Assembly: GCA_948465545.1 (NCBI GenBank)
Contig: CAOJXO010000003.1
Location: 18,936 to 82,935 of the forward strand
Source: an uncultured Bacillota bacterium
GTDB taxonomy: Bacteria > Bacillota > Clostridia > Christensenellales > UBA1242
Direction: 5' to 3'
DNA length: 64,000 bases
The notes under the pieces: model-generated
Seen by the model: only the letters and a program-made list of their open reading frames with translations
The model's database searches: none
Told to the model about the DNA's origin: nothing
Position numbers and translations under genes: made by a program
Shown here: piece after piece, positions 5,117 through 42,397 of the stretch
Layout: each line of letters begins with the position of its first letter
Numbering within the stretch: the first letter of the stretch is position 1

Positions 5117-5279
5117 GGTAATATAAAACTTTCTGCATATAGTTTAATTGAAAAGCCCACGAAAAACAAAGAATTTTCGCGAATTAATTATTTTAAATTA
5201 AAAAAAAAATATTTTACCAAAAAACTATTGCAAAACAAGGTAATTTATGATAATATAAATATATACATTGGAGGGAACT

Positions 5280-6419
5280 ATGAGCAAAAAACAACAAGAA
5301 AAAATTAACAAAGCAAATCCAACGCTTAAAAATGGAAGCGAACAAAAGATGACAACAATTAAAACAAAACAATACAACAAACTTAGAAGTTTTAGATTTG
5401 CACGTACTTTTATCACAGCCTTAACAGTATTAACAATGTCTGTTTTTGTTGCCGTTGGCACAACTGCCTGTGATGTTCAAAACAACCCAAATCCAGGTCC
5501 TGGCATTGTAGAACCTGACAAACCAAATCCTCCAGACCCAGACCAGCCTGATAAACCAGACCCAGATCAACCCGATAAACCAGATCCAGACCAACCCGAT
5601 AAACCAGATCCAGACCAACCTGATAAACCAAATCCTCCAGACCCAGACCAGCCTGATAAGCCTGATATTGATTATGACAAACTCACCCCAGCAACCCTTA
5701 CTGCAGAGCAAAAAGCAACCATTGTAAACAATGTAACCACTGCCCTTGCAAAGAACATTCAAAGAAATATTGGTAACACTGGTGTTGTAAACAAAGTTGT
5801 TGCTGTTGACTTTGAAGGAAACTATGTAAAATTATTATTAGACTATCACAACAACTCATATGGTGATATGTACGGATTTTACAAGTATGAAATGAAAACC
5901 GAAATGAATTATAAAAACATATTGACCTCTGACATTTCCCCTGTAAGTAGCAACGGAAGAGGCACTCCTCTACTTGACGATTTCTCTCATACAGGCAATG
6001 ATACCCGTGTTAAAGAAGTTATGGCAAAACTCAATCCTAGCCTTAACATTGAGGAATGTGACTTTACAAGCATTGTCAACAATGGCGGTGCTATTGTTCC
6101 AGGAATAGGTGCTACACATGAAATTACAATTTACACACTTGATAATAATGGTATTATAAAAACCATAACAAATGCAAAAAGTGATGCAAATTATACCGAT
6201 CCTATTGGACAAGGAATTATCAATGGCGAACTTGGTAAAACTTATACAGAGCCAACTATTGAAAGTTTTGAACTCGGCGATTATGCACTGTACGATTTCA
6301 ATGGTCTTGAATCAGAGGTGGGGGCTACAGCACAAACTGCAACTTATGCATTCACAGTTGAAGGCAAAACTGCAGAAAGAATTAAAAATGGTAGATATTA
6401 CCAAGAAGAACAAGAATAA
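5280..6419 (+). CDS. membrane-anchored or secreted protein with a Pro/Asp-rich PDPDQPDK repeat linker
   Basis: GGAGGG RBS before the ATG at 5280 (the track ORF starts at a TTG at 5268). It has a basic N-terminus, then a hydrophobic segment ending VAVGTTAC, then the repeat linker and a beta-rich C-terminal domain. Confidence 0.6.
   Translation: MSKKQQEKINKANPTLKNGSEQKMTTIKTKQYNKLRSFRFARTFITALTVLTMSVFVAVGTTACDVQNNPNPGPGIVEPDKPNPPDPDQPDKPDPDQPDKPDPDQPDKPDPDQPDKPNPPDPDQPDKPDIDYDKLTPATLTAEQKATIVNNVTTALAKNIQRNIGNTGVVNKVVAVDFEGNYVKLLLDYHNNSYGDMYGFYKYEMKTEMNYKNILTSDISPVSSNGRGTPLLDDFSHTGNDTRVKEVMAKLNPSLNIEECDFTSIVNNGGAIVPGIGATHEITIYTLDNNGIIKTITNAKSDANYTDPIGQGIINGELGKTYTEPTIESFELGDYALYDFNGLESEVGATAQTATYAFTVEGKTAERIKNGRYYQEEQE
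5514..5666 (+). repeat. in-frame 24-bp tandem repeat (about 6 units) encoding (P-D-K-P-D/N-P-D/P-Q)n
   Basis: Directly visible: cctgataaaccagacccagatcaa and close variants are repeated head to tail. Confidence 0.9.
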
Positions 6420-6501: not shown

Positions 6502-8451
6502 ATGAAAAAATTTGCAAGAGTGATATGTGCTTTATTTATTTGCATGTTTGCCTTCCTAAGCGTAGGCTGCTTTGGCATTGGCTCAGACTCTGATTTTCAT
6601 GACATGCTTATAGAAATGTATAAAAATGGAGAAATCACACTTGAAGAACTTCAAGAACAACTTAAAAACTCTATGTCTACACCTATGTACGGGACAAAGG
6701 TACTATACCGCCCAGAGCATTATGATTATGATGGAGCAGTAGGCGAAGGTAATGAGGAATATTTCGGTCAATTTGCTTTTGTCATTTTGGATGCATTAAC
6801 TCGAACCTATGGAACTACTTCTTTAACAGATTATTTATCTCAACAACAACTAGATTTAGACTATTATAACAACACAAGCCAAAAATATTATTACGATTCA
6901 ATTCGTTATAATCTCTACTCGCAAGAAGAATATAATACAAAAATTATCTATGAAGAAGATGTAAATGGAAGCATTACTTATAATGGTAAGAAATATTCCG
7001 AGAAATGGAGCGAAAGCGATTTTGCAACAATCTCCATTAACACTGAAAACGCTTGGAATTGGACTTTTGGAGTTATTGCAAATCCTAACGGATATATAAT
7101 CAATGAAGAAAACAATATTTTGGGGACTTTAACACCTAGCATTAACGATATAACAACATCCACAAGATTGATTCAAAACTCTTATTACATCGATGGAAAT
7201 AGCAACGATTATTTTAACAACTTATCTATACATTATACCCAAAACCAAACTCAATATATCCTTTCATATCTGGGTACAGAATCACAGCAAGAAACTGAAA
7301 ACTATTCTGACTACGTAAAAGCCCTTGAATATGTGATTTACTGTATAACAATGGACTTAACCCCTGCAAACATAGATGTTACCATTAATGCTGACGGCAC
7401 ACCTAATGTAAAAATTGGTAACTTTGCAGATGTTGACTCCGCACTCACCTACATTAAAGAAGTGTTTGACAAAATTGGTACTTATGTTGGTGTGTCTACC
7501 GCTAAGGCTGAGCGAATTAAAGAATACATCCTAACAAATGTTATCGGTGCAAATGCATTAAACAACGATTCTGTTTCAATCACAAAATATGACACTGTGA
7601 AAGTATATCAAAATTCTGACGGCACTCAGCATACTGAAATTGTTGGTTCAACCATTTCAGAGCCTCCACTGCCTATCCATAGGGATTACGAAGGTGTGCT
7701 TAACAACATTTTCGATGCTATTTATAAAGACGTTCATATTGGAAGTGAAAGCGACGATACAATCAACAACCGCTACCCTGCTTCTGAAATTATTGATTAT
7801 TACGGAAACAATTTCTTCATATCTGCTGATAAAGAGTTTGCAAATATCAAGCCTCTTGAATATCAAAGTGCTGTACTGATGTTTAGTGAAGATGTTACCA
7901 TTGACAACCTTATGCTTCACTTTAAATATGATGCAGGGCTTGATGGCGACGACAATTATGACCCTAACGCATCAATCACAATCAATGTCTATGTAAACTT
8001 CTACGATCACAGTGAAAAGCGATATTATGAAAAATTGGTAAAGGAAACCATTGTTGTTAAAGATGGGCCTTTCGATTTTGGTAATGAAAATAATACCATG
8101 TGCTTATTCGGAATTGCACCTGTCAGAGGCGATGGTATTGAAATTGAAGCTTTTGAACCTGAAATAGGCAATGGCGTTATGAAAACAATGGAATATGATG
8201 GGCTCACAAGCATAAGTGACCCTATCCGCTTAATCGGTACTACCCAACTTAAAAACTACTACCAAATTGTAGAACCTAAGGAATCCACCCTCGACCAAAA
8301 TGTTTATTATAGTTACGGCATTCTTAATCCACTTCAATTTGCTGGCACTGACGGCTGTGACTATCTTGAAATTGCCTATGAAGTTATTAAAACTACTGGC
8401 GATGTTGATACAAACTACAAATTCTATACAGGTTTAGGTACGGTGGCATAA
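6502..8451 (+). CDS. lipoprotein of unknown function (649 aa)
   Basis: Signal peptide MKKFARVICALFICMFAFLSVGC with a classic L-S-V-G-C lipobox. The protein is Asn/Tyr/Thr-rich. No family recognised. Confidence 0.65.
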   Translation: MKKFARVICALFICMFAFLSVGCFGIGSDSDFHDMLIEMYKNGEITLEELQEQLKNSMSTPMYGTKVLYRPEHYDYDGAVGEGNEEYFGQFAFVILDALTRTYGTTSLTDYLSQQQLDLDYYNNTSQKYYYDSIRYNLYSQEEYNTKIIYEEDVNGSITYNGKKYSEKWSESDFATISINTENAWNWTFGVIANPNGYIINEENNILGTLTPSINDITTSTRLIQNSYYIDGNSNDYFNNLSIHYTQNQTQYILSYLGTESQQETENYSDYVKALEYVIYCITMDLTPANIDVTINADGTPNVKIGNFADVDSALTYIKEVFDKIGTYVGVSTAKAERIKEYILTNVIGANALNNDSVSITKYDTVKVYQNSDGTQHTEIVGSTISEPPLPIHRDYEGVLNNIFDAIYKDVHIGSESDDTINNRYPASEIIDYYGNNFFISADKEFANIKPLEYQSAVLMFSEDVTIDNLMLHFKYDAGLDGDDNYDPNASITINVYVNFYDHSEKRYYEKLVKETIVVKDGPFDFGNENNTMCLFGIAPVRGDGIEIEAFEPEIGNGVMKTMEYDGLTSISDPIRLIGTTQLKNYYQIVEPKESTLDQNVYYSYGILNPLQFAGTDGCDYLEIAYEVIKTTGDVDTNYKFYTGLGTVA

Positions 8452-9095: not shown

Positions 9096-10583
9096 TCATC
9101 TCACGCTCATTGTAATATTGAAATTTGAAATCTTCCCTTCGCTGTCACTTTCGATTGTTACACGAAGTTGTCTTCCACTGATTCCACTTTTAATAACCTG
9201 CTTTTTATCATCTGCTGATATGTTGTACTCACGCATATCTCGCTCGGTTTCTAAAATCACCTTGCACTCTACATTCGCCTTAATTGTAAAAGAGTCTACC
9301 TTCTTAATCTTATCACCATAGCCATAGTCACTAAAAGCACTTTGCCAAATTTTATGAGTCTGCTCACCAAAAATAGAACCATTATGTATAAGTTCGCCAA
9401 TGTGACCGATATTGTCATTATTAAAACAAAGGGCAATCTTGCTTTTATACTCGTTGTTAAGTGCAAGCAACTGGTGGACGTCTACACCGCGTAAAAACTC
9501 CACACTCTTCTTATTGATGTCGTAAATTAAAATTGCATTGTTTATATACCCTTTTTCACTTGACTCACACCCTATTTTGTTGTCATCTTTAAAATCGACC
9601 TTACAAGCAAGGTAATATTTACCTTCAAAACATATCGCATTGCAATTTGTTTTATCTATAATCCTATTAAAGCAATCAAGGTCTAATCGCTTCACAGTAT
9701 TTCCGTTAAAACTATAAAATCCTTCTGTTGTCAAAAAGTAAACATTTTCGCCGTCAGAAGCAATAGAACCTGGATAGATATAACTTGTTGATTGAAAGAT
9801 GTGACTGATGCTGAATTTACCAGATGTTGAATAGGTTGACAGCCTTGTAATACCAAAATCTCTAAATATGTAGAGATAATCGTTAAAAGAAATCACCTTT
9901 GAAAGGTTACCACGCTCATCACTAAAATCAAGATGTTCGGTAACCCTATCATTCCATTCAAGTAGGTTTTGATTATCAGAATAAACAAGGCTTCGCCTTG
10001 CTGTGGCAGTAAGTGCATACATACGCTCATCATGGGTACAACAAGAACTCAATTTTGGTGCGTCAGGAAGATATTTATTATATCCACTTCCGTAAACATA
10101 AACGTCCCCATCAGATGCAGAGAACACCATGTAATCACTGCCATTAATTCGGCAACTCATACCAATAGGTGTTGATGTATAGTTGGACTCTAATATAAGT
10201 GGAACAGGACGCGACCAAAACAAATTGTCAAAAACAATCTGTGACTTATCGTTGAAGTAGAAAATGTAGTAGTTTAATATATTCCCCGCACGGTCAAGCC
10301 AAGAAAAACTCCACATGCTTCGCACTTCGTCGCCCTGCACCTCAATCAGACTTTCGTCATCAAGATTTGTTGTAGACATAGGCATCTGCAAATCACGCAC
10401 ACCATATCCTGTTGACAAACTGTTTCCGTCAAAAGAAAAATTATAAGATGTTACTGCAATATTATAGTCTATCTCTTCATCGTTTGAGTGAGAGTTCTGA
10501 CACTTTTCAAAAAGGTTAAATTTAAAAGTTTTAGTTTCTTTATCAGTGGCTACAATTTTGTTTTCATAAAACATTATAACCAC
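9096..10583 (-). CDS. phage structural protein, beta-rich/propeller-like (tail hub or nozzle candidate)
   Basis: 495 aa with repeated aromatic beta-strand motifs (DGDVYVYGSG, ERMYALTA, NDYLYIFRDFGITRL, GENVYFLTTEGFYSFNG, GKYYLACKV, NAILIYDINK). It sits downstream of the connector-like gene. Confidence 0.45.
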   Translation of the reverse strand: MVIMFYENKIVATDKETKTFKFNLFEKCQNSHSNDEEIDYNIAVTSYNFSFDGNSLSTGYGVRDLQMPMSTTNLDDESLIEVQGDEVRSMWSFSWLDRAGNILNYYIFYFNDKSQIVFDNLFWSRPVPLILESNYTSTPIGMSCRINGSDYMVFSASDGDVYVYGSGYNKYLPDAPKLSSCCTHDERMYALTATARRSLVYSDNQNLLEWNDRVTEHLDFSDERGNLSKVISFNDYLYIFRDFGITRLSTYSTSGKFSISHIFQSTSYIYPGSIASDGENVYFLTTEGFYSFNGNTVKRLDLDCFNRIIDKTNCNAICFEGKYYLACKVDFKDDNKIGCESSEKGYINNAILIYDINKKSVEFLRGVDVHQLLALNNEYKSKIALCFNNDNIGHIGELIHNGSIFGEQTHKIWQSAFSDYGYGDKIKKVDSFTIKANVECKVILETERDMREYNISADDKKQVIKSGISGRQLRVTIESDSEGKISNFNITMSVR

Positions 10584-11143
10584 CTCCTCCTAGAAAGTAT
10601 TGTTTTTGTCTTTTTGCGGAGTACAATCTTTAAACTATCTTTAAATCTATTTTCATAGATATATGCTTCATCAGTAAGCCCTTGCCTTAAATAGTACTCT
10701 CTTGCAACGCCATACGCACAAATTCGCTCTGAAAGATTAATTTCAATATCACCATCAATAGTTGCTTTGTTTGGTTTGTAAGAATATCGCACCCTAGCCT
10801 CATTTGCAAAAACCAAAATGTAGGTTGGAAATACTTTAAATTTCACCTCCCTACCCTTCAAATCGCAGATAGAAATAACTTCCTGCAACGGTTTTGACAA
10901 AGCAGATATATTAAGTTTAAAGTTTTGGATTTTAAACTCCTCTTCATGGATAAGAGGTTTATATTCACAGGCAATCTCATCTTGAACAAAGTTTAAACAG
11001 TCAAGATAAATATCCAGTTTTTTTCTCTCTTTCGCACTAAGGATTTCATCTAAAGTGGAAAGGTTTGCCTCGGTAAGTTTTTCGGCTATTTCATCATTTT
11101 CGCTAAACTGGCAAGCGATCCTGATTATTTCGTATCCTTTCAT
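10574..11143 (-). CDS. phage head-tail connector/adaptor-like protein
   Basis: 189 aa, positioned after the MCP. The C-terminal pattern ERICAYGVAREYYLRQGLTDEAYIYENRF resembles gp6-like connector proteins (from memory). Both ends overlap neighbouring ORFs. Confidence 0.4.
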   Translation of the reverse strand: MKGYEIIRIACQFSENDEIAEKLTEANLSTLDEILSAKERKKLDIYLDCLNFVQDEIACEYKPLIHEEEFKIQNFKLNISALSKPLQEVISICDLKGREVKFKVFPTYILVFANEARVRYSYKPNKATIDGDIEINLSERICAYGVAREYYLRQGLTDEAYIYENRFKDSLKIVLRKKTKTILSRRRWL

Positions 11144-11454
11144 GCGACTACCTCCATAATTTTTTCGGTGGCGGACTTAACAAGTGACCTTTGTAGTTTT
11201 TCGTTTGCTTCATCCATTTCCCTGATACACTCGGCTTGACGCTCTGCCCTAGTGCGACGTGCATAGCCTAGTGTGCGATCATCAAGTGCATCAAACCTTA
11301 CTGTAAAGCAATAACTATCTCCTATTTGCTCGGAAGAATGCACCTCATATTGTCCGCTCTTTTTGTTTAAAAGCACAAAGTATGATTTATCAATCTCTTT
11401 CAGCCTTTGACAAATAAACAAGGGATCATGTTCGATTAAAATATATTTTTTCAT
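11140..11454 (-). CDS. phage hypothetical protein (104 aa)
   Basis: Start set at an internal ATG (MKKYILIEHDP) preceded by a TAGGAGG RBS. The longer track ORF (to 11601) would overlap the capsid gene. Confidence 0.45.
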   Translation of the reverse strand: MKKYILIEHDPLFICQRLKEIDKSYFVLLNKKSGQYEVHSSEQIGDSYCFTVRFDALDDRTLGYARRTRAERQAECIREMDEANEKLQRSLVKSATEKIMEVVA

Positions 11455-11497
11455 GATTAACCTCCTAAAAAGGCAAAAGATTGAAATCTTTTGCCTT

Positions 11498-12703
11498 TTA
11501 AACGTTTTCAGGAATGTAAGTTTTGTAAGGATCTTCAACAGTAAATTTAATGTTAGAGATTTTGCCTTGTCCGAAAGGTTTGTCACACATAAGTTCTGCA
11601 TATTTCACAAGCGTTGCAGAATATGTTGGATAGCCAGGTTTTTGTCTAATCACCTTTCCACCTTCCCCTTCAATCCAGTTCCAGTCAGCAAGTTGATGTA
11701 TTGTGAAGTCATCAGTGTTAAGTAAATACATAGAGTGTTCCTCAATAAATCTATCAGCATATACAGGAATACCGTTGTGAGAGATCGTCTTAATTCCATT
11801 GCCAATGTCAACAATATCAACATTCTTACGGTAGATGTTAAGATATTGTTGATATGCCCTACGAGCAGCCCTTGAAGTTGCAATAAAGTTTACCTGAGAG
11901 TCTGCGTTTTCTTCCAAGAAGTCGATTGCACTTTGGATACGGATATCAGAGATTTCTCCTTCCTCAGAATCCACATAAGCATTAAGCCAGTTGTAATCTT
12001 TCTTGTTAAGTCCATATAACTTGTCGCCAGTAAAGAGTGCCTCAATACCAGTAAGTTCCCTGCCCTTAGAACCTTGAACATACATTTGTCTGTTTGCAGC
12101 AACAAAGTCAGAACCCCAACGTTGATCGTATTTAAACTTGTTATTTACTCTGTCAAGAGAAGTAATTTTAATTGCTGTTTCGCATGCTTTTACATCATTG
12201 TTGTAAAGGTCAACAAGCATACCTTCCATTAAGTTTCTAACGGTATCACAAACAAAGTTGCCATTTACCGTATCAACTGTTGTGATTTTTGCAAGAAGTC
12301 CAGTACCTGTGCCATAAAGCATTCTGTTAAGATTGAAAGTGCAAGATTTTACAAGGTTTTCCATTTCATTTGAAAGTAAGTTTACGAATGCACCTGCATT
12401 GCTTGCAGAAGCCCTTACAGCCTTATCAGATATTTCAAAAACACCATAAAGGTTTTTAAGTGTTGAGCGAAGTTGAACAAAATCACTTGCAGAAGATTCA
12501 GGAAGTGACTCAGTTTCGCTACCAGCGCCAAAACCGCCATTTATACCATAAGGTGCGGCTTTAACAATTTCTTTGCCGAAAATATTGCTTGAAGATTGTT
12601 TAATCTTTGCAAAAAGAGGGCTGGTTGCAACGTTAAGTTGATTTGCAATCACACCAAGATAAACCTCTTTTAAAGCGTTTTCAGCGGTTTGTAATGTAAC
12701 CAT
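11498..12703 (-). CDS. phage major capsid protein (HK97-fold type, no delta domain)
   Basis: 401 aa located directly after a scaffold gene. The N-terminus MVTLQTAENALKEVYLGVIANQLNVATSPLFAKIK and the overall pattern are typical of Firmicutes phage MCPs. Confidence 0.75.
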   Translation of the reverse strand: MVTLQTAENALKEVYLGVIANQLNVATSPLFAKIKQSSSNIFGKEIVKAAPYGINGGFGAGSETESLPESSASDFVQLRSTLKNLYGVFEISDKAVRASASNAGAFVNLLSNEMENLVKSCTFNLNRMLYGTGTGLLAKITTVDTVNGNFVCDTVRNLMEGMLVDLYNNDVKACETAIKITSLDRVNNKFKYDQRWGSDFVAANRQMYVQGSKGRELTGIEALFTGDKLYGLNKKDYNWLNAYVDSEEGEISDIRIQSAIDFLEENADSQVNFIATSRAARRAYQQYLNIYRKNVDIVDIGNGIKTISHNGIPVYADRFIEEHSMYLLNTDDFTIHQLADWNWIEGEGGKVIRQKPGYPTYSATLVKYAELMCDKPFGQGKISNIKFTVEDPYKTYIPENV

Positions 12704-12723
12704 AATTTTCTCCTTTTTTGTTT

Positions 12724-13371
12724 TTAACTAAATAATTTTTCCACCCTAGCCTTTGCTTCTTTTAAAGAAGTAGGAGTGTCAGGCACTGTGCTTGACACTC
12801 TTTCCCCTTTTTGAGAAGAAATGATAATAGGTGAATTTTGCCCTTTAAGAGCATCGAGATAGTTTTCAACTACCTTTTGTTTAATCTCGTCACTTGATAA
12901 AATGTAACGATTTATTATAGGGTCACTAGCCTTTTGCCCTGAAACATGGCTAAGCACAACCTTAGCCCATGCCAAATCAAATGGGCTTGCAACCTTTTGC
13001 AGTGATGGGTCTGACTCAACCAGATCTTTAATCTCATCAGCATACACTGCTGCTTCACCATTTTTAGAAAGGAACTGGGAAAACTGTTCGTCCAGATTTT
13101 GTTCTAACACAGTTTCTTCGGTTTTATCTTTTTCAAGTTGGCTTAGCTTTTGACATTTCTTTGTAAATTCGGCTTGCAAGTTTGTGTATGCTTCCAGCAG
13201 TGCAGAAGCAGACTTAAACTTACCAAACTCACCTTCATCGGGTCTTTCAACTTGTCGATATTCAATGTCGTTATTTTGAGAGCCAGCCTCACTTACAGCA
13301 CTATCCCCCTCTGTTTCAATCGAAACATTTGCCAGTTCCTCTGCTGGTTGTTCTCTAAGTTCGTTATCCAT
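12724..13371 (-). CDS. phage scaffolding protein
   Basis: 215 aa, acidic and helical. The motif GKFKSASALLEAYTNLQAEFTKK resembles those recurring in phage scaffold proteins. It lies between portal and MCP. Confidence 0.65.
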   Translation of the reverse strand: MDNELREQPAEELANVSIETEGDSAVSEAGSQNNDIEYRQVERPDEGEFGKFKSASALLEAYTNLQAEFTKKCQKLSQLEKDKTEETVLEQNLDEQFSQFLSKNGEAAVYADEIKDLVESDPSLQKVASPFDLAWAKVVLSHVSGQKASDPIINRYILSSDEIKQKVVENYLDALKGQNSPIIISSQKGERVSSTVPDTPTSLKEAKARVEKLFS

Positions 13372-13372
13372 A

Positions 13373-15226
13373 TTAATTCTCCTTTTTATATTCGTTCTTA
13401 TGCGTCTTTATATGCTCTAAGAATATTGTTTCAAGTTTAGGATTTTTCACCTTCGCGTTCTCAAAATCCATACCAAGCATAAAAGAAATGTGCTCGTTGA
13501 TATGAAGTTCATGATTATCAATCTCACTCACTTTCACATTCACCCCATCAAGCATTTTAAGATTTTCATTGCCTGCACGCTTGATATGTAGGTCACTTAT
13601 ATCTTGTGAGTTTTCCCAAGTGCCAAGTCCAAGCATTTCAAGAATTTTACTTTTCATACTGGTTGTAAGTTTACCTTCTTCATCTGACAGAACCCCCGCA
13701 TTAAGAAGATTAAATATCATTTCTCTGCGTTGAATTAAAGAATCACCAAGGTCTGACTGAACATCAACAACAACATCATCACTTGAAATGTCGTTTGATG
13801 AAAAGTAGAACATATCAATTTGACCATTCTCACCAATAATTCTGGCAAGTCTAGGGAAAAGAGCATACTGCTTATACAGCCTTAAAATTCGTTTTGCAAT
13901 ATTTAATGATGCTGTTTTTATACTCTCCGATGTAGTATTAAGCCTTGTTTCATCTTGCCCTATCATAAGTTCAAGGGCTGTACCACTCATGTTTGCGTTC
14001 ACATAATCAGTGCCAAGTGTTTCACTTACACCGCTGATTTTGTTAAATTCATTAAGAAGTTTTTCTTCTTCATCAGCAAATCCAGACGGAATAGCCTCCC
14101 CAGAAAGATATTTTGGCTCACTTGCCCCCTGCCTATATACCAGCACCTTACCGGGACAAAGTCCATCTTCTTCCAAATTTTCAAGGTCAACCGAGCCATC
14201 TTCAACACTAAGCACACCAAGTGTAAGGCGATTGATAAACTCATGCTTACGGTTTTTCACTGCATTGTATGCCCTTTGCACGGGTATCAATCTTTCAATT
14301 ACACTACTTCCCCAGAAACTGCCTGGCTCTGACAAACTTACCTGTCTAATGAAAGGAAAATCACGTTTGCCGTCGCTTCCACATTTATATGGAAGTTCGC
14401 CATCATAAACAAGATTGTCCCCAGCAACAATAATAAGTCTGCCGTTTGGGTACTCACTATTTGGACGAATGTATTTTTCAAGGACTAAAACACTGTCATG
14501 TTTTGTTGATTCAATAAGTTTTGTTGCTGTGGCATTATATCCAAGCCCACCTATTCCGCTTACTACATTATCAAGGCTATAACAGTTGATATTTTGCCCC
14601 TCAACATCTATACCATAGATACTTTTAACTTCACCTGCAGAATATGCCCTTGCATGAATAATACTTTCACAATCTTCAAGGCTTTCTCTGGTTGCAGAGT
14701 CAGGGAAGATTTCAAATGGACTAACCACCGTCACTTCCACTTCGCCACTTCTAATCTCACCGCCATCTTCATCTTCAGCGATAAGTTGTCCCTTTTGGCT
14801 ATCCCAGCAAACCTTATAGAATGATGTTCCACACACCTCACTCCACTTGATTGCCTGATTAATCTTGTCATCTATGCCAAGTTTATAGTAAACAGAATCA
14901 ATAATCTTTTTAGATACCTTTGCGGTTTGTTTGTCACGCTCATCCCCAGTTGCAGGAAGAACAGAAAACTTAGGTTTCGTTTTTGACAACTTGGCTGTTC
15001 TTATATCAAATATAGGTGCAACATGATTGAATATTTCACGCTCCTGCCAGAAGTATTGCTTGTCCGCCTCTTCTAAGAGTCCGCCATATCCTATGTTGCA
15101 ATATTGATTTCCCATAAGGAAATTCATATTCACCTGCCAAGATGTTTCAAAAGGCTTTTTAGCCTGTTGCCTTTGTTTAAAATCTTCAATAACTTCTTCT
15201 ACTATTGTTTTCGCTTTACTTTTCAT
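13373..15226 (-). CDS. phage portal protein
   Basis: 617 aa. The N-terminal pattern SWQVNMNFLMGNQY...NHVAPIFDIRTAKL...VLPATGDERDKQTA is characteristic of portal proteins. It sits upstream of the scaffold and MCP genes. Confidence 0.75.
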   Translation of the reverse strand: MKSKAKTIVEEVIEDFKQRQQAKKPFETSWQVNMNFLMGNQYCNIGYGGLLEEADKQYFWQEREIFNHVAPIFDIRTAKLSKTKPKFSVLPATGDERDKQTAKVSKKIIDSVYYKLGIDDKINQAIKWSEVCGTSFYKVCWDSQKGQLIAEDEDGGEIRSGEVEVTVVSPFEIFPDSATRESLEDCESIIHARAYSAGEVKSIYGIDVEGQNINCYSLDNVVSGIGGLGYNATATKLIESTKHDSVLVLEKYIRPNSEYPNGRLIIVAGDNLVYDGELPYKCGSDGKRDFPFIRQVSLSEPGSFWGSSVIERLIPVQRAYNAVKNRKHEFINRLTLGVLSVEDGSVDLENLEEDGLCPGKVLVYRQGASEPKYLSGEAIPSGFADEEEKLLNEFNKISGVSETLGTDYVNANMSGTALELMIGQDETRLNTTSESIKTASLNIAKRILRLYKQYALFPRLARIIGENGQIDMFYFSSNDISSDDVVVDVQSDLGDSLIQRREMIFNLLNAGVLSDEEGKLTTSMKSKILEMLGLGTWENSQDISDLHIKRAGNENLKMLDGVNVKVSEIDNHELHINEHISFMLGMDFENAKVKNPKLETIFLEHIKTHKNEYKKEN

Positions 15227-21842: not shown

Positions 21843-22265
21843 TTAGCCATCAACTTGAATACATTTTGTGAGTTTTGCCCGAACTATTCCTTTTACAGTC
21901 CAGCCTTCTGGCAAACGCTCAGTTTCTTCAAAATGTTTAACTTCTTCAAAAAGTTTTCCTTTTCTTTCTATTGTTGCAATGGCATTAATTTTATATTGAA
22001 CACTATCGCCATAATATTCTTCATTAACTTTTGTCACATGAATAAAAATCTTGTTGTTTTCTTCAATATTTTTAATTGACTCAACCATTTGAACAATAGG
22101 AATAACAATTTCATTACAATCATATTTGCTAGGTTCTACAATCGTTGCATGCGGTTGACTATCTTTACCACAAGTAACAATATGGCAAACTCCTATCTTT
22201 TGTATATCATTTAATTGTTCTTGGGTTAAAATCCCCCCCCCAACTTTGCGTTTATTCTTTTCCAT
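21843..22265 (-). CDS. hypothetical protein, possibly PNPOx-like FMN-binding fold; contains a G9 tract at codons 9-11
   Basis: Start set at the ATG (MEKNKRKVGGG) preceded by a TAAGGAG RBS. The fold assignment is a weak, pattern-based guess. Confidence 0.4.
   Translation of the reverse strand: MEKNKRKVGGGILTQEQLNDIQKIGVCHIVTCGKDSQPHATIVEPSKYDCNEIVIPIVQMVESIKNIEENNKIFIHVTKVNEEYYGDSVQYKINAIATIERKGKLFEEVKHFEETERLPEGWTVKGIVRAKLTKCIQVDG
22233..22241 (-). repeat. homopolymer C9 (G9 on the coding strand) encoding Gly-Gly-Gly
   Basis: Counted directly: atccccccccc aac. Confidence 0.95.
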
Positions 22266-22276
22266 ATTCAATCTCC

Positions 22277-23122
22277 TTAAAAAACCTTTAACCCTCTTGC
22301 CCCGCATGGAAGCACTATATTTTCACTGGTAGGCAAGCCAACCTCGTCAGCATCAATTCCACCCTTGCCAAATATAAGGGTAAGGATATTTGCAAGCACG
22401 CTTGCTTGCAGTCCTGTGGTGTAAGAATTGATAAGCACAAAAAGTGGTTTATCTGACAACACTTTTTTAGTAAGCGTTACAAAGTCAAAAAGTTTATCTT
22501 CAAGTTTCCACATTTCGCCATTTGGCCCTCTTCCGTAACTTGGCGGGTCCATTATAATCGCATCGTATCTGTTACCCCTGCGAATCTCTCTTTCAATAAA
22601 CTTTTCACAATCGTCAACAATAAAACGAATGTTTGTAATGCCGTTTATCTTTGCGTTCTCTTTTGCACGTTCCACCATACCTTTGCTTGCATCAATATGG
22701 GTAACACTTGCACCAGCCTTAGCACAAGCAACTGATGCCCCACCAGTATAGGCAAAAAGGTTTAAAATTTTGATAGGTCTTTTGGCGTTTTTAATTAACT
22801 TCATCATCTCCGACCAGTTGACTGCCTGCTCTGGGAATAAGCCAGTATGTTTAAAGCCCATAGGTTTTATAATAAACTTTAATCCCTGCCAAGATATAGT
22901 CCACTCTGCTGGAATCTTATTGATATAATCCCAACGTCCACCACCAGTGCTTTCACGGAGGTAATGAGCGTCAAGTCCCTTCACTTTTGCCAAGTTTTTT
23001 TGTGCGTGCCAAATAACCTGAGGGTCAGGGCGAAGCAAGGTAACATTCCCCCACTTTTCAAGTTTTTCGCCGTCGCCAGTGGCAAGCACGGTATAATCAG
23101 TCCAAGTATCTGCGATTTTCAA
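22277..23122 (-). CDS. class I SAM-dependent (rRNA-type, RlmI/YwbD-like) methyltransferase
   Basis: 281 aa with ILNLFAYTGGASVA and IIMDPPSYGRG motifs, typical of the Methyltrans_SAM family. Confidence 0.7.
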   Translation of the reverse strand: MKIADTWTDYTVLATGDGEKLEKWGNVTLLRPDPQVIWHAQKNLAKVKGLDAHYLRESTGGGRWDYINKIPAEWTISWQGLKFIIKPMGFKHTGLFPEQAVNWSEMMKLIKNAKRPIKILNLFAYTGGASVACAKAGASVTHIDASKGMVERAKENAKINGITNIRFIVDDCEKFIEREIRRGNRYDAIIMDPPSYGRGPNGEMWKLEDKLFDFVTLTKKVLSDKPLFVLINSYTTGLQASVLANILTLIFGKGGIDADEVGLPTSENIVLPCGARGLKVF

Positions 23123-23196: not shown

Positions 23197-26100
23197 TTAT
23201 CGTGAAATTTTAGAAATAAATATTTTAAGTGTTTTTCCATTAAATTCTAAGGCACAATCAAACTTTCCGTCGCTTCCCAAAGAAAAACTATCAGCAAGTA
23301 AGGTGCGTGAAATTGTTTCGCTGTTTTTAAGAAGCACACTTTCAATACTATGCTCTCCATTAAATTCCACTTTGATATGGTTTGTCACTTCAAGACCGCT
23401 GTCCTTTCTAAGGTTTTGAACCTTGCTTATAAACTCATTTACAAGTCCCTTATCAAGAAGGTCTTGTGTCAAAGTGGTATCAAGCACAACAGTAAGTTCG
23501 CCATCACTCACAGAAGAATAGCCATCTTTGTTTTTAAGGGTAATAAGAAGGTCTGCTTCAGTTAAAACAATTTCTTCTCCATTAACCGTAAATGTAAGAG
23601 GCTTACCATTTCTTACATCATTCACGGTGGCAACAGGGTCAACAGACGCAAGTTTCTCACGAATTGCACCTAAAAATTTACCATACTTAGGCCCAACCGT
23701 TTTAAGTTGAGGTTTGATTTCATAACTTACATATTCATCAGCATCATGCAAGATTTCAAGGCTCTCAACATTAAGTTCGTCTTTGATAAGGTCACATAAT
23801 TCGCCATCAAGAGTCAAATGCTTAGATGTACATATAATCACCTTTTCAAGTGGTTGACGATTCTTAACTCCACTGCCACTTCGGCAGGCTCTGCCAAGTT
23901 CAACCAGTTGCAATACCTTATTCATACCTTCATTAAGTGAAGTATCAATCATCTTTTCATCAGCCTTTGGATAGTTGCAGAAGTGTACGCTTTCTGGTGC
24001 GTTTACATCAAGACTGCGTACAAGGTTTTGATAGATTTGTTCTGATATAAAAGGCACAAAAGGGGCAACCAATTTTGATAAACCAACAAGCACCTCATAA
24101 AGGGTTTTGTATGCAGCACGCTTGTCATCAGTTTCTTCTTTACCCCAGAATCTTTCACGTGAGCGTCTTACATACCAGTTTGATAACTTATCAACAAAGG
24201 CAGTAATTTCACGTGCAGGCGATAAAATATCGTGTTTTTCAAGATATTTTTCGGTATTTTTGATTAAAGCATTAAATTCTGAAAGAAGCCACTTATCAAT
24301 AAAAGCAAGTTTGCAATCAGAAAGATTATATTTAGTTGGATTAATTTGGTCGATTTCAGCGTAGAGAACATAGAACGCATACACATTCCAAAGTGTACCC
24401 ATAAACTTACGTTGAAGGTCAAGAAGATTGTCCTCATTGAAAGACAGGCTTTGACCTGGATTGCAAGAATAATAGAAATACCAACGAAGGGCATCAGCAC
24501 CCTCTTTATTGAGGATTGCCCAAGGGTCAATACCATTGCCCTTTGACTTAGACATCTTCTGACCGAACTGGTCGTTAACAAGTCCAAGTGCAGTACAACT
24601 TTTATAAGGGGTTTTTCCGAACACAGCACTATTGACAGCCTGCAAAGAATAGAACCAACCACGTGTTTGGTCAATACCCTCACAAATGAAATCAGCAGGG
24701 AAAGACTTTTCAAACATCTCCTTGTTTTCAAATGGATAGTGATATTGTGCGAACGGCATAGACCCACTATCAAACCAGCAGTCCATAACCTCTGGCGTTC
24801 TTACCATTTTCTTACCACAATGAGGGCAAGGGAAAGTAATCTTATCAAGGGTTGGCTTGTGAAGGTCAAGTTCCCCTTTCACGCCTGAAAGTTTACGTAA
24901 CTCTTTTACACTTCCAACAACATGAATATGTCCGTCCTCACACTCCCAGAAAGGAAGCGGTGTACCCCAATAACGGGTACGTGAAATGCCCCAATCAATA
25001 TTGTTTGCAAGGAAGTTACCCATACGCCCGTCTTTAATGAATTCTGGCACCCAGTTTACGGAGGCGTTATTTTTAACAAGGGTATCCTTGATTGCAGTGG
25101 TCTTAATAAACCAAGTGTTCTTAGCGTAGTAAAGAAGTGGGCTGTTACATCTCCAACAGTGAGGATAAGAATGTTCGAATGGGTGAACCTTAAACATCTT
25201 GCCTTCTGATTTAAGTTTTTCAATGATAGGCTTGTCTGCCTCTTTAACAAAAAGTCCAGCAAATTCGGTACTCTCACTCATCTTGCCCGCTTCGTCAACA
25301 TATTGCAAGAAATCAAGTCCGTACTTCTTGCCAACATTGTAGTCGTCTTCACCAAAGGCTGGTGCAATATGAACGATACCAGTACCGTCCTCAGTGGTAA
25401 CATAATCATCAACAACAACAAAGTAGCCCTTCTTAACAGAATCCTTTGCATAGTCGAAAAGAGGCTCATACGCATGATACTCAAACTCTTTACCCTTTTT
25501 GGTGTAAATAGTCTTGTAACTACCCTCTTCAAAAAGAGTATGAATAAGTTTTGTAAGCATGATGTAGTTTTTGCCATTTGCTGAAATCTTTGAGTACTCC
25601 TCTTTCGGATTCATACAAATTGCAATGTTTGAAGGAAGAGTCCAAGGCGTAGTAGTCCAAACAAGGAAATATGTGTTTTCTTCCTGCTTACTTTTCATTT
25701 GAACGAACACGCTGTTTTCTTTTAAGACTTTATAGTTGTCGCCGTTTTCTACTTCCATTTTTGAAAGGCTTGTTCCGCAACGAGGGCAATAAGGAACAAT
25801 CTTGTGACCTTTATACACAAGACCCTTCTTATCCATTTCTTTAAGAGCCCAGAAAATACTTTCAATATAGTTGTTATCGTAAGTGATATAAGGATTGTCA
25901 AGGTCAAGCCAGTATCCAAGGCGGTCAGTCATATCCTCCCAAAGCCCCTTGTATTTCCACACCGACTCTTTGCAAAGAGTGATAAACTTTTCAATGCCGT
26001 ATTTTTCAATGTCCTGCTTGCCGTTAAGTCCAAGTTTCTTTTCAACCTCAACTTCAACAGGAAGCCCGTGAGTATCCCAGCCCGCCTTACGAGGCACAAA

Positions 26101-26334
26101 GTACCCCTTCATTGATTTGTATCGTGGGAAGATGTCTTTCATTGCTCTAGTGAGTGGGTGTCCCATGTGAGGCATACCATTCGCAGTCGGAGGCCCTTCA
26201 TAGAAAGAGAAAACCTTTCCGCTGTTTTCATTAAGGTGTAAGCCTTTTTTGATTATATCGTTCTTTTTCCAAAACTCTAAAACTTCTTTTTCATTTTTAA
26301 CGAAGTCAAGTTTGGTGTCTACTTTCTTATACAT
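23197..26334 (-). CDS. ileS: isoleucine--tRNA ligase (type 2 architecture)
   Basis: PPTANGMPHMGH (HIGH) and KMSKSKGN motifs, about 1045 aa. Start set at the ATG (MYKKVD) preceded by a GGAGA RBS. No T-box leader, because the upstream gene abuts. Confidence 0.93.
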   Translation of the reverse strand: MYKKVDTKLDFVKNEKEVLEFWKKNDIIKKGLHLNENSGKVFSFYEGPPTANGMPHMGHPLTRAMKDIFPRYKSMKGYFVPRKAGWDTHGLPVEVEVEKKLGLNGKQDIEKYGIEKFITLCKESVWKYKGLWEDMTDRLGYWLDLDNPYITYDNNYIESIFWALKEMDKKGLVYKGHKIVPYCPRCGTSLSKMEVENGDNYKVLKENSVFVQMKSKQEENTYFLVWTTTPWTLPSNIAICMNPKEEYSKISANGKNYIMLTKLIHTLFEEGSYKTIYTKKGKEFEYHAYEPLFDYAKDSVKKGYFVVVDDYVTTEDGTGIVHIAPAFGEDDYNVGKKYGLDFLQYVDEAGKMSESTEFAGLFVKEADKPIIEKLKSEGKMFKVHPFEHSYPHCWRCNSPLLYYAKNTWFIKTTAIKDTLVKNNASVNWVPEFIKDGRMGNFLANNIDWGISRTRYWGTPLPFWECEDGHIHVVGSVKELRKLSGVKGELDLHKPTLDKITFPCPHCGKKMVRTPEVMDCWFDSGSMPFAQYHYPFENKEMFEKSFPADFICEGIDQTRGWFYSLQAVNSAVFGKTPYKSCTALGLVNDQFGQKMSKSKGNGIDPWAILNKEGADALRWYFYYSCNPGQSLSFNEDNLLDLQRKFMGTLWNVYAFYVLYAEIDQINPTKYNLSDCKLAFIDKWLLSEFNALIKNTEKYLEKHDILSPAREITAFVDKLSNWYVRRSRERFWGKEETDDKRAAYKTLYEVLVGLSKLVAPFVPFISEQIYQNLVRSLDVNAPESVHFCNYPKADEKMIDTSLNEGMNKVLQLVELGRACRSGSGVKNRQPLEKVIICTSKHLTLDGELCDLIKDELNVESLEILHDADEYVSYEIKPQLKTVGPKYGKFLGAIREKLASVDPVATVNDVRNGKPLTFTVNGEEIVLTEADLLITLKNKDGYSSVSDGELTVVLDTTLTQDLLDKGLVNEFISKVQNLRKDSGLEVTNHIKVEFNGEHSIESVLLKNSETISRTLLADSFSLGSDGKFDCALEFNGKTLKIFISKISR

Positions 26335-26350
26335 TTTTATCTCCAATTAA

Positions 26351-27211: not shown

Positions 27212-27481
27212 TCTACCGAGCGGATTTGCTTTGACAAATGAAAACCAACTGCCTCAAAAATTTCTGACTCCACCAAAGTCACCCTATGGCACATCAGGTT
27301 GCTTCCTTAATGATGCTGCCGTCAGGCTCTGACATGGTTCGGAAGGTCTAATTGCATAGGACCTTGATTTCAACGTCACAAACTTTCGCACATATTTGAC
27401 AATCATAAGCCGAGGCAAACGTTTGACCCTACTATAGCGGATTGTAGGTACAGAGCACCGCTAACTCTCCATCTAGCTCGG
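27212..27481 (-). ncRNA. ffs: signal recognition particle RNA, large Bacillus-type (with Alu domain)
   Basis: Minus strand reads GTTAGCGGTGCTCTGTACCTACAATCCGCTATAGTAGGG (Alu-domain consensus as in B. subtilis scRNA) and GAACCATGTCAGAGCCTGACGGCAGCATCATTAAGGAAGCAACCTGATGTGCC (domain IV-like). The terminal helix is CCGAGC...GCTCGG, and the element has its own promoter and terminator. Ends are approximate. Confidence 0.8.
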
Positions 27482-30993: not shown

Positions 30994-31500
30994 ATGCCAA
31001 ATTTCACACTTATAAAATCACCAGACGAAATCATTAATGCCCTTAACGGTAACGGTTATAGCGTTAGCCTTAGCCCTAACTATGTAACAAAGAAAGGCGA
31101 ATTTAAACCACCAAAGGTTGGCAATATGAATAAAGATGGTTTAAGTCTTGAATATATCAATGAAAAATATCCAGACAAAAAATATATTCTTTTTGTAGAA
31201 AATGAGTTTGAAATTGAAAGCCACAATGTTTTCAATGTAAGACTTATCAAATATATGTTTAAAACTTATGGAAATGAGTATTTAACACATGTAAAGATGC
31301 ATGTACTACAAGCAATAAACGCCACCTGTTCTAATGAAGGAACAGCATATAGAGATCGACGCCTTAAAGATGATATGAAATTTTATAATCAACTTTACGC
31401 AGAAGTTAAGGCAGAAATAGAAAAAGAGGCAAAATTAAAAGAATCTGAAACCGAAGCGGGGGGGGGAGTAAAACCCGAGCAACAGGAAGAAGCAGAATAA
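30994..31500 (+). CDS. hypothetical protein (168 aa) with a G9 tract near the 3' end
   Basis: AGAGAGG RBS and a terminator directly downstream. No family recognised. Confidence 0.5.
   Translation: MPNFTLIKSPDEIINALNGNGYSVSLSPNYVTKKGEFKPPKVGNMNKDGLSLEYINEKYPDKKYILFVENEFEIESHNVFNVRLIKYMFKTYGNEYLTHVKMHVLQAINATCSNEGTAYRDRRLKDDMKFYNQLYAEVKAEIEKEAKLKESETEAGGGVKPEQQEEAE
31458..31466 (+). repeat. homopolymer G9 encoding Gly-Gly-Gly
   Basis: Counted directly: gaagc ggggggggg agta. Confidence 0.95.
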
Positions 31501-40942: not shown

Positions 40943-41028
40943 ATATATCTCCTTAATTTTATTTTATCATAAAACCCTTTTCAGCCAAAGAAATATTCAA
41001 TCAAAAAAGAATGGTCAAGCCATTCTTT

Positions 41029-42311
41029 TTAACTTTCACTTTCTTCTTCACTACCTTTTAAGATATCTCTAATTTGTTCTACTGTCAAACTTGCTTTAAA
41101 AATTTTATTGTATTGTACTTGCAAACTATATAAACCATTGTATATAGCATTATTTACAGTACTTATGGTCAAGCCTAAAATGTCAGCAACCTCCGCATAT
41201 TTAACCTTCTTAGGTGCATAATACAGCATTAAGAGTATCAATGATTGCCTTTTTGTAAGGTTTGAAACTATAATATTCTTCAATGTTGCTTTTGGTGTTT
41301 CAGCAGAAATAGCAGTTGCCTGAATAGTCTTTTTATCTTTATATTTTTCCAGAATCTCAATAAGCCTATCATTGGTAAGTGGTTTCTTTGGATTTTCTTG
41401 GTTATAAATCTCTAAAAGTTTTTTAAGTCCATTTTGTTTTGTTAAAGAAACTGTATTAAAACTAATTCCCAATTTGTCTGCAATTTGCTTTTGTGTTGTT
41501 TTTTTAGCAGTAAAGTACAACTTTTTCAAAATTTGGGTTTGACGCTTTGAAAGTTTTGCATTTACAATCTTTTTAAGCTTCGGAATTGCAGAAGAAATTG
41601 AAACCTCTCGTGGAGGCTTCTTTTCCACCTCTTTTTTTGCTCTGCCACCTGTGCGTATTTTAAGTTCGCCAGTTTCAATCAAAATCTTTAAGTTTTTAAT
41701 TGCACTCTTCTCTATTCTTGATATATATGATTGTTTTAATCCAAGAATCTTGGCAATTTTTCTTTGATTTACAACCTTATCTCCATCACCCGATAAATAT
41801 CTCAATTTCAATACCTGCGACTGCTTTGGTGGAAGTTTGTCTATATATTTAAACAAATCTCTTAAGATGCTTTCTCTTTCTTCCGTATCAACAACATCCG
41901 CTTCAACATCCACATCACTTGCTAAAACATCTTCTAATTCTAATTCGCTATCGTCTTTACCTTTTGCTAGGGTGGAATTAAGTGATACTACAATTCCCCC
42001 CCCAATTTATTCTCACGTCTAAAATACATTAGTATTTCATTTTCAATACATCTTGCCGCATAAGTGGCAAAAGCCAAGCCTCGGTCTAGTTCAAAACTCT
42101 GAACCGCTTTCATAAGTCCAATCTTACCAGTGGAAATGATATCCTCAAAATCATGCTCATGTCCATTTTTAAACTTTTGTGCAATATATCCAACAAAACG
42201 TTCATTTTTTGAAACAATCTCACCAAATATTCTGCTATATTCTTTTGAACCTTTTTCGTATTTTTTCAACTCTTCAAAAAGTTGTCTATTTTCATCTGTT
42301 GTCATTTTCAT
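41029..42311 (-). pseudogene. sigma-70-family sigma factor split by a frameshift in a G8 tract (ORFs 41988-42311 and 41029-41913); the repaired product has three region-4-like HTH modules
   Basis: The upstream ORF carries region 2 (DIISTGKIGLMKAVQSFELDRGLAFATYAARCIENEILMYFRR) and stops 3 codons after GGGGGGGG. Adding one G reads through as KLGGGIVVSLNSTLAKGKDDSELELEDVLASDVDVEAD, in frame with the downstream ORF. I verified this codon by codon. Confidence 0.8.
41996..42003 (-). repeat. homopolymer C8 (G8 on the coding strand) at the sigma-factor frameshift site
   Basis: Counted directly: caatt cccccccc aattt. Confidence 0.95.
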
Positions 42312-42397
42312 AATTTTTATTATAACCTAAAACCCGTCCAAAGTCAATACTCAACCTTAAACAAAAAAGCAAGGGAATCAATCCTTGCTTTTTAAAA

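Follow-up and report, generated by a model that had tools for sequence, protein, structure and literature searches.

A putatively phase-variable sigma-70-family gene with additional region-4-derived modules in an uncultured Bacillota bacterium

Textbook sigma factors are modular and carry one region 4 per molecule. C-terminal extensions are known in ECF41, ECF42 and related groups and in SigI of Clostridium thermocellum, where they are SnoaL-like, TPR or SigI_C domains. Contingency loci and phasevarions are exemplified by the poly-G tracts of Campylobacter jejuni and Helicobacter, by the mod genes of Haemophilus and Neisseria and by the swrA poly-A tract of Bacillus subtilis. In Staphylococcus aureus, SigH is described in passages of PMC7911514 as a cryptic competence sigma factor, encoded in a conserved housekeeping cassette and expressed only in a subpopulation through a reversible genetic change. 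The mechanism given there, summarising Morikawa et al. 2012, is a reversible tandem duplication combined with control by the 5' untranslated region (5'-UTR). The present work concerns a sigma factor gene located on the minus strand of a 64 000-nt stretch of DNA, hereafter called the window, from an uncultured Bacillota bacterium of the Christensenellales (GenBank assembly GCA_948465545.1, contig CAOJXO010000003.1, positions 18 936 to 82 935). The gene is interrupted by a poly-G tract, and the protein restored by one added base carries two region-4-like modules besides the canonical one. We regard it as probable that this is an intact gene phase-varied by the tract, an assessment that leaves the role of the extra modules aside.

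Two minus-strand open reading frames (ORFs) were read, from their sequences, as one sigma-70-family gene broken by a run of eight Gs (G8; 41996-42003, C8 on the plus strand), the putative switch. The 5' part (42311..41988) encodes in this OFF state 107 aa, comprising sigma region 2 and a three-residue out-of-frame tail, and terminates ...RRENKLGGEL before its stop codon. The 3' part (41029..41995) lies in the -1 frame and encodes the linker, region 4a and the two extra modules, up to a TAA codon at 41029-41031. Its frame contains no stop from 42006 to 41032, i.e. across the G8 tract. The ORF list gives this part as 41913..41029 (294 aa), starting at an internal GTG. No Shine-Dalgarno sequence was seen ahead of this GTG on inspection of the sequence, so independent translation from it is unlikely. 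When one G was added to the tract, the two ORFs fused into a 427-aa frame with the junction reading ...KLGGGIVVSLNSTLAKGKDDSELELEDVLASD.... Region 2 with a stop three codons past G8, and a stop-free fusion through nine Gs, are what the original prediction had described; the length it gave, about 428 aa, has to be corrected by one residue. The tract is not a chance occurrence. A first-order model predicts 0.33 G/C runs of at least eight for the window (36.5% G+C), where three were seen; among the Gly codons of its long ORFs, GGG is used least. Neither a further copy of the modules nor another sigma-like ORF was found in the 64-kb window.

The tract was compared among about 33 contigs, and isogenic copies were compared over 1271 nt. 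About 11 of these contigs were ON and about 22 OFF; G8, G9 and G10 occurred, as did all three reading frames. The window (G8) and contig L009 (G9) showed no other difference in the 1271 nt, and L009 encodes the ENA protein P0132, which is exactly the +1G fusion of the window. Two further isogenic sets differed at the tract only, namely L010/L011 (G8) vs L012-L018 (G9) and L004-L006 (G8) vs L021/L022 (G9). In the lineage with a TCG(n)ATTTG junction, G9 was ON and G10 was OFF, and the commonest OFF state overall was the ON state minus one base. The 90%-identity protein cluster contained, from many assemblies, intact forms of 425/427 aa, N-terminal forms of 105-108 aa and C-terminal forms of 293-329 aa. 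The N-terminal stubs ended variously in ..GGEL, ..GGGL or ..GGDCSTA. Differing states were found inside the same blocks of consecutive run accessions (SRR220499xx/500xx; SRR298556xx-7xx). Contig L016 begins exactly 31 nt ahead of the last G of its G9 run; if the Logan assemblies were made with k = 31, as we presume, this start would mark a branch within one sample. No other stop or frameshift was found in the about 33 contigs, and every disruption was at the tract junction.

The locus thus shows an intragenic homopolymer of hypermutable length (G8 here, G8-G10 in relatives) and a repeat-length polymorphism that toggles the frame between isogenic copies (ON and both OFF frames), as expected of a contingency gene. 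Two roles had been put forward for the tract, ON/OFF phase variation and production of a stand-alone sigma-2 fragment. The polymorphism between otherwise identical copies and the ON copy P0132 speak for phase variation; a functional fragment found no support, as its tails differ between the OFF frames and nothing marks the stub as selected. A second tract of the window, G9 at 31458-31466 (plus strand), is close to the 3' end of an ORF (30994-31500; 168 aa) without a Pfam family. Other assemblies contained a 158-aa G8 form ending ..EAGGE, otherwise identical to the 168-aa form (P0300 vs P0305). Since this tract also has two states, length variation of poly-G tracts across assemblies is general in the source organism.

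At least five lineages have retained an orthologue at the corresponding locus. Those encoding P0283, P0277, P0284 and P0297 lie, like the window gene, between rplS and the DNA-alkylation-repair-comM-dprA genes, with the same promoter-to-ATG layout. In L024, from a related species, the positional orthologue (7431-8423) has G9 at the site of the window tract, in another codon phase (R-G-G-V), and a paralogue 1.5 kb upstream of it (5001-5972) carries A9 there (L-K-K-N). The L026 orthologue, which is more distant, has its G9 elsewhere (codons ~55-58); its JGI cluster-mate P0290 starts MRGGGIF.., as expected if the gene had been cut at the tract. The L025 and L027 orthologues have no tract. Conservation of the tract and of the triple module, which the original prediction had left to an alignment of orthologues, therefore holds in part: the tract recurs as G9 or A9 but is missing from L025 and L027, and the number of extra modules varies (1, 2, 4 or more). 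A G9 or A9 run stands at the same site in three genes with differing codon phase and amino acids, a further feature of contingency genes. As the homopolymer is kept or re-invented while the encoded peptide changes, the comparison indicates that the tracts are selected for mutability. The two sigma paralogues of L024 are separated by MarR and DegV genes, and the locus is structurally plastic.

A second allele of the gene (L003-L006, L021/L022) shares 65% protein identity with the window gene, in a genome whose TopA is 99% identical and whose flanking DNA is 93-100% identical. Nucleotide identity drops to 66-83% precisely where the sigma gene lies and rises again along the gene that follows (window ~42250-41050 vs L003/L004); the downstream DNA-alkylation-repair gene is also lowered, to 84-90%. 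This pattern suggests that deep alleles are maintained, or that alleles are replaced by recombination. Between the two alleles, which differ at 320 nt, no additional stop or frameshift was found. The ratio of nonsynonymous to synonymous substitution rates (dN/dS) was 0.35 overall, with 0.21 for the N-terminal fragment, 0.27 for the linker and the canonical region 4 (r4a), 0.53 for the first extra module (r4b) and 0.35 for the second (r4c). These values point to purifying selection on both halves of the gene. Conservation between alleles was high in the canonical parts that read the promoter, region 2.3-2.4 (84%) and the r4a recognition helix (82%), and lower in region 2.1-2.2 (45%) and in the recognition helices of r4b (41%) and r4c (35%). 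In L023 the sigma gene is a mosaic within its first 103 codons. This contig also has an extra 140-aa ORF (707-1129) between rplS and the sigma gene.

The domain composition of the 427-aa fusion was analysed with profile models. Pfam Sigma70_r2 matched residues 33-101 (window 42009-42215) with 51.9 bits (cut-off 24), and Sigma70_r4 matched three separate stretches with 87.1 bits in total (cut-off 24.1), the best being residues 157-209. TIGR02937 (sigma70-ECF superfamily) scored 142 bits vs a cut-off of 42.9, and the SigK/SigE models of NCBIfam aligned across residues 14-209. Residues 157-209 form the canonical, SigE/SigK-like region 4 (r4a; 41686..41844, minus strand; ..LPPKQSQVLKLRYL..GLKQSYISRIEKSAIKNLK). 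They are followed by r4b (residues 238-327; 41332..41601, minus strand; ..YNQENPKKPLTNDRLIEILE..), a sigma-4-like four-helix unit with a C-terminal helix, and by its tandem duplicate r4c (residues 334-422; 41047..41313, minus strand). When scanned alone, r4b scored 29.9 bits with Sigma70_r4, above the 24.1 cut-off. For r4c the score with this model was 22.5 bits, just below the cut-off, and Sigma70_r4_2 was passed marginally (26.2 bits vs 25.7). The two extra modules are 39% identical across 87 aa and each appends a C-terminal helix to the sigma-4 fold (YN....LT.E..R.IL); by sequence they are a tandem duplicate of a larger unit of ~90 aa. The best matches of the module profile among solved structures were region 4 of RpoD and of FliA.

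An AlphaFold model was computed for P0001 with a 34-sequence alignment. It contained four confident helical domains (sigma-2, r4a, r4b and r4c; pLDDT about 85-93), with the r4b helices at residues 239-253, 256-266, 274-281, 285-306 and 314-334 (pLDDT about 85-90). They were joined by disordered linkers (104-111, 131-141, 220-234 and 331-337), and with a pTM of 0.30 no fixed arrangement of the domains was predicted. The tract encodes Gly-Gly-Gly of linker 104-111 (pLDDT <50), a linker that, according to the model, can tolerate length changes. Only sigma factors were among the matches of the model in Foldseek. The protein presumably acts as a sigma factor. One canonical region 4 followed by two more region-4-like modules, as originally proposed, was recovered alike by Pfam, by the RpoD/FliA profile matches and by the four-domain model, and sigma-4 profiles detected both repeats, r4c marginally. 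The further proposal that all three modules recognize -35 elements stands only for their sigma-4-like nature: -35 recognition by r4b and r4c is not established, because their recognition helices show poor conservation and a less basic character than region 4.2. A role in a defence system was also considered and dropped, PADLOC giving just a generic sigma-2 similarity to MzaA without defence context.

When 1.84 billion representatives were searched exhaustively by HMMER with the C-terminal 213 residues, only 17 hits were obtained. Among the SigE/SigK-like relatives, P0283, P0284, P0286 and P0287 have one extra module, P0277 and P0290 have two and P0279 has four; in P0282 (987 aa) eight stretches match the module profile. 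By these counts, sigma factors with extra region-4 modules are very rare, forming a family that carries 1 to 4 or more of them. The original prediction had known of no described sigma factor with a triplicated region 4. None was found in the literature, which was searched incompletely, but the architecture is not unique, since this rare family exists. A homologous-protein search with the module alignment and scans of JGI metagenomes returned no matches. A contig scan with a three-allele alignment, for which poor patterns had been chosen, yielded no sigma genes other than unrelated ones (Desulfobulbus, Anaerolineales). Phage genomes contained only ordinary sigma factors, matching the N-terminal half at 50% coverage or less, and so gave no support to a phage origin of the multi-module design. 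Four proteins of 285-374 aa (P0278, P0280, P0285 and P0291) consist of 3-4 near-identical tandem sigma-4-like modules without region 2, some with a hydrophobic N-terminus resembling a signal peptide or membrane anchor. P0003-P0005 (613-630 aa), from Clostridium magnum DSM 2767 and relatives, are apparently two sigma factors fused in one chain. Their order is a SigE/SigK-like unit, a SigF-like unit (regions 2, 3 and 4), two short HTH motifs and a C-terminal domain; they are annotated merely as 'RNA polymerase sigma-F factor'.

Upstream of the gene, a scan located a near-consensus sigma-A-type promoter, TTGACT-17 nt-TATAAT (42319..42347, minus strand; 11/12 positions), that ends 7 nt before the ATG. 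TTGAC(T/A)-17-TATAAT, 6-7 nt before the ATG, recurs at the orthologues and the paralogue in L024, L025, L026 and L027, likewise without a Shine-Dalgarno sequence. The start called for L026 is probably an error; translation would then begin at Met7. With a promoter so close to the ATG and no Shine-Dalgarno sequence, the mRNAs of the window gene, of these orthologues and of the paralogue are probably leaderless. The promoter is presumed to fire and looks constitutive. Inspection of the sequence showed an intrinsic-terminator-like hairpin, AAGAATGG-CTTGA-CCATTCTT with a T run, directly after the stop codon (41003..41027, minus strand); it had been missed by the terminator scan, which demands at least 3 G-C pairs. 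Because of this hairpin the gene may be taken as a monocistronic unit. The terminator of the upstream rplS (AAGCAAGG..CCTTGCTT with a T run; 42363..42390, minus strand), also recognized by inspection, appears to shield the sigma gene from ribosomal-protein transcription. Another terminator-like hairpin, at 41620..41600 inside the coding sequence, was judged a chance match. Apart from the tract, nothing else looks regulatory at the sigma locus.

The following mechanism is proposed. The gene would encode an alternative sigma-70-family factor with a SigE/SigK-like region 2, a short disordered linker, a region 4 and two tandem HTH modules derived from region 4. Its control point would be the hypermutable poly-G tract, placed in the linker directly after region 2.4. 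Slipped-strand mispairing at replication would alter the tract length (G8, G9, G10), presumably at high and reversible rates, so that a cell would produce the complete 427-aa factor when ON and a region-2 stub of 107/108 aa when OFF. The window genome would be OFF (G8), one base from ON. The whole regulon of the factor would then be switched in a stochastic, heritable and reversible manner, i.e. it would be a phase-variable regulon. Because the promoter looks constitutive and the mRNA leaderless, the tract would be the main control. The OFF allele may in addition be expressed at a leaky level through transcriptional slippage or a -1 frameshift.

Several observations weigh against this mechanism. 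Coverage is low on some contigs (about 3x for L009), so that single cases could be homopolymer errors. A share of about one third ON would also result from random drift of the tract, one strain set (13 contigs, G8+ATT and G9+ATT) is OFF only, and some OFF forms could stem from altered A/T bases beside the G run and not from the run itself. The break would be a sequencing or assembly artefact if the window genome were truly G9 and the gene constitutively intact. Errors are common in homopolymers of 8-10 bases, the G8 call of the window probably comes from assemblies of one sample, and the identical ON copy is the thinly covered L009. However, OFF recurs in independent samples (L004, L005 and L006) and ON in L021, L022, L019, L020, L001 and L002, in both cases on contigs of 10-23 kb; in one strain nine contigs agree on G9+ATT and four on G8+ATT; and the second poly-G tract shows the same two-state pattern. 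Random errors would not yield such consistent consensus calls, so an artefact is very unlikely, and an assembly error in the window genome alone would leave the overall picture unchanged. Programmed recoding would instead have the G8 allele expressed through RNA polymerase slippage or a -1 frameshift on G_GGG_GGG, with a fixed ratio of stub to full-length protein. TTG GGG GGG formally matches X_XXY_YYZ, the shift required in the window genome is -1, the paralogue has an A9 tract, a type of run well known for transcriptional slippage, and the commonest OFF state is 'ON minus one base'. Efficient slippage is, however, known mainly for A/T and not G runs. The 96 nt downstream fold with -11.4 kcal/mol vs a shuffle mean of -13.2 (z = +0.71; 152/200 shuffles at least as good), which leaves no stimulatory RNA structure, and ON alleles and both OFF frames coexist in isogenic backgrounds, whereas recoding sites normally keep one arrangement. 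As the frames are not fixed and no such structure is present, recoding would not be the organising principle here and is improbable as the explanation; it could also work on top of DNA-level switching. As for a decaying pseudogene, in which the sigma factor would be dispensable and the frameshift the first lesion, out-of-frame copies make up about two thirds of those sampled, a dN/dS of 0.35-0.5 is high for a regulator and the OFF-only strain set would fit. Unrelated disruptions in alleles or orthologues, the sign of decay named in the original prediction, were not found: all disruptions are at the tract junction, dN/dS is <1 in every segment, orthologues persist at the locus, and homopolymer tracts arose at two different positions and in the paralogue. 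Since no copy has a second disruption and dN/dS is about 0.35, the gene does not behave as a decaying pseudogene, and this explanation is extremely unlikely.

Phase variation by the tract is compatible with more than one role of r4b and r4c. They may be DNA-binding heads that contact extra upstream elements or replace r4a at the beta-flap, with an allele-specific promoter specificity; this is speculation, to which we give somewhat less than an even chance. Against it, the recognition helices of these modules, 35-41% identical between alleles, are poor in basic residues and ill-suited to a fixed DNA element. Its main rival makes r4b and r4c protein-interaction or regulatory domains, for example an auto-inhibitory intramolecular mimic that sits on region 2 or on the beta-flap site, or a target or decoy of anti-sigma proteins, and would explain their fast evolution. 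The scaffold positions of the modules are conserved family-wide and the 'recognition helix' positions are not. Region 2.1-2.2, normally core-binding and most conserved, is also merely 45% identical between alleles, and the C-terminal extensions of ECF41/42-type sigma factors act as regulators. Yet AlphaFold gave no confident inter-domain packing (pTM 0.30), and the modules retain the HTH geometry and the S/T-x-x-(T/A)-(V/I) start of the recognition helix. Moreover, no conserved partner gene lies beside the locus, and there were no defence hits beyond the MzaA similarity. We consider such a role unlikely. The boldest form of the DNA-head proposal is a tract-gated 'multi-headed' sigma factor, in which one -10-reading region 2 would be joined by flexible linkers to three different heads that engage extended upstream promoter elements in tandem or alternate on the beta-flap. 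We hold this form to be unlikely. In it, the sequences of the heads and their number (2 to at least 5, including region 4) would evolve quickly, and deep alleles would be kept within the species.

If the multi-headed form were true, one protein could read several -35 types, and the locus would represent a previously undescribed route by which promoter specificity is built, diversified and deployed stochastically. Whatever the modules do, a multiplied region 4 whose number varies between orthologues poses a testable question on the reading of promoter architecture, and the multi-module family is a natural scaffold for promoter-specificity engineering. A homopolymer switch on a sigma factor would mean that an uncultured low-G+C bacterium, apparently associated with a host, hedges its bets on an entire transcriptional programme. 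The recurrent homopolymer tracts and the sharp divergence island point to strong, fluctuating selection on the targets of the factor. As gene callers split or shorten the sigma gene, the family is under-annotated in metagenome catalogues.

Some other features were recorded. A third tract (22233-22241; C9 on the plus strand, G9 on the minus strand) occupies codons 9-11 of ORF 22307..21843, where it is in frame. This ORF encodes a PNPOx-like protein of 154 aa that begins MEKNKRKVGGGILTQ.., and the 5' position of the tract is typical of ON/OFF contingency. In L025, from a related genome, a G12 run (9304-9315) about 170 nt upstream of the gene start at 9485 is a possible promoter/leader contingency tract. 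A phage head module lies among housekeeping genes of the window at 9096-15226 (minus strand), with a portal protein (phrog_156), a major head protein (podovirus-type NF033394; phrog_14242) and a virion structural protein. Either the remains of a prophage or a domesticated capsid element could account for this module. Also on the minus strand are a large (Bacillus-type) SRP RNA at 27216-27481, a MupA/eukaryote-like IleRS at 23197-26346 and a ComEC homologue at 3026-5116, for which the third-ranked hit was the Mycoplasma-type ComEC family. Gene spacing in the window is compact, and taken with the SRP RNA, ComEC and IleRS it hints at a host of reduced genome, related to Bacilli or Mollicutes and using genetic code 11.

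Among described sigma factors, SigE and SigK are closest in sequence. Their models (TIGR02835, TIGR02846, NF004471 and NF006158) were the best-scoring families for residues 3-210 (E 1e-42 to 2e-47), the closest database proteins to the N-terminal half were SigE/SigK-like proteins of 234-250 aa with 37-44% identity, and both the region 2.3/2.4 motif (FATYAARCIENEILM) and the SQSYISRIEK-like helix of region 4.2 belong to that type. Nevertheless the scores were far from the equivalog cut-offs, with 161.4 bits vs 252 and 152.8 vs 298.65 for the SigK models and 151.7 vs 339 and 146.2 vs 348.6 for the SigE models. The pro-sequence of SigE/SigK is missing: the models align from their positions 35-41 to query residues 3-15, which leaves no room for a pro-peptide of 20-27 residues. 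Unlike SigE and SigK, the protein has about 215 extra C-terminal residues, and its gene stands in a housekeeping cassette behind a sigma-A-type promoter and not in a sporulation context. On this evidence the protein is assigned to the sigma-70 family but not as a SigE/SigK equivalog. With ECF41, ECF42 and SigI it shares an extra C-terminal part past region 4, expected to modify activity or promoter recognition. Here, unlike in those factors, the extension is made of tandem sigma-4-derived modules in a number that varies between orthologues (1, 2, 4 or more). It is not of the ECF41/42 type, the best families being SigK/SigE and group-3 sigma factors and the extension matching Sigma70_r4-type models. 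Nor does the locus resemble a recoding gene, as the out-of-frame arrangement is not conserved and a downstream stimulatory RNA structure is lacking.

The nearest biological analogy is S. aureus SigH, as far as passages of PMC7911514 present it: cryptic, hypervariable and switched on in a subpopulation. As there, the sigma gene of the window is a divergence island in conserved flanks; it lies beside comM-dprA, and comEC is in the window. In contrast, the switch of SigH is not homopolymer-based and SigH is without extra region-4 modules. Because no SigH or ComX model was among the best 25 of 93 NCBIfam hits, the sequence family of the window protein differs from that of SigH. The adjacent comM-dprA and comEC give a positional hint of a competence role (ComX/SigH-like), which stays a lead since dprA-topA synteny is ancestral in Bacillota and no such model was among these 25 hits. 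The sigma-70 family and phase variation by simple sequence repeats are known. Neither a sigma factor with a multiplied region 4 nor a homopolymer-switched or phase-variable one was found described in the literature, which was searched incompletely, and both would be new as far as that search goes. As in contingency loci and phasevarions, the frame of a putative global regulator is toggled by a homopolymer inside the gene, of a length that varies among isogenic copies, and the tract is retained across alleles and species despite the changed peptide. Unlike in classical phasevarions, the regulator switched here would be a sigma factor, and the host is an uncultured low-G+C Bacillota-like bacterium and not a classical pathogen. 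The best-supported reading is that the switch works as in the classical contingency loci and 'phasevarions'.

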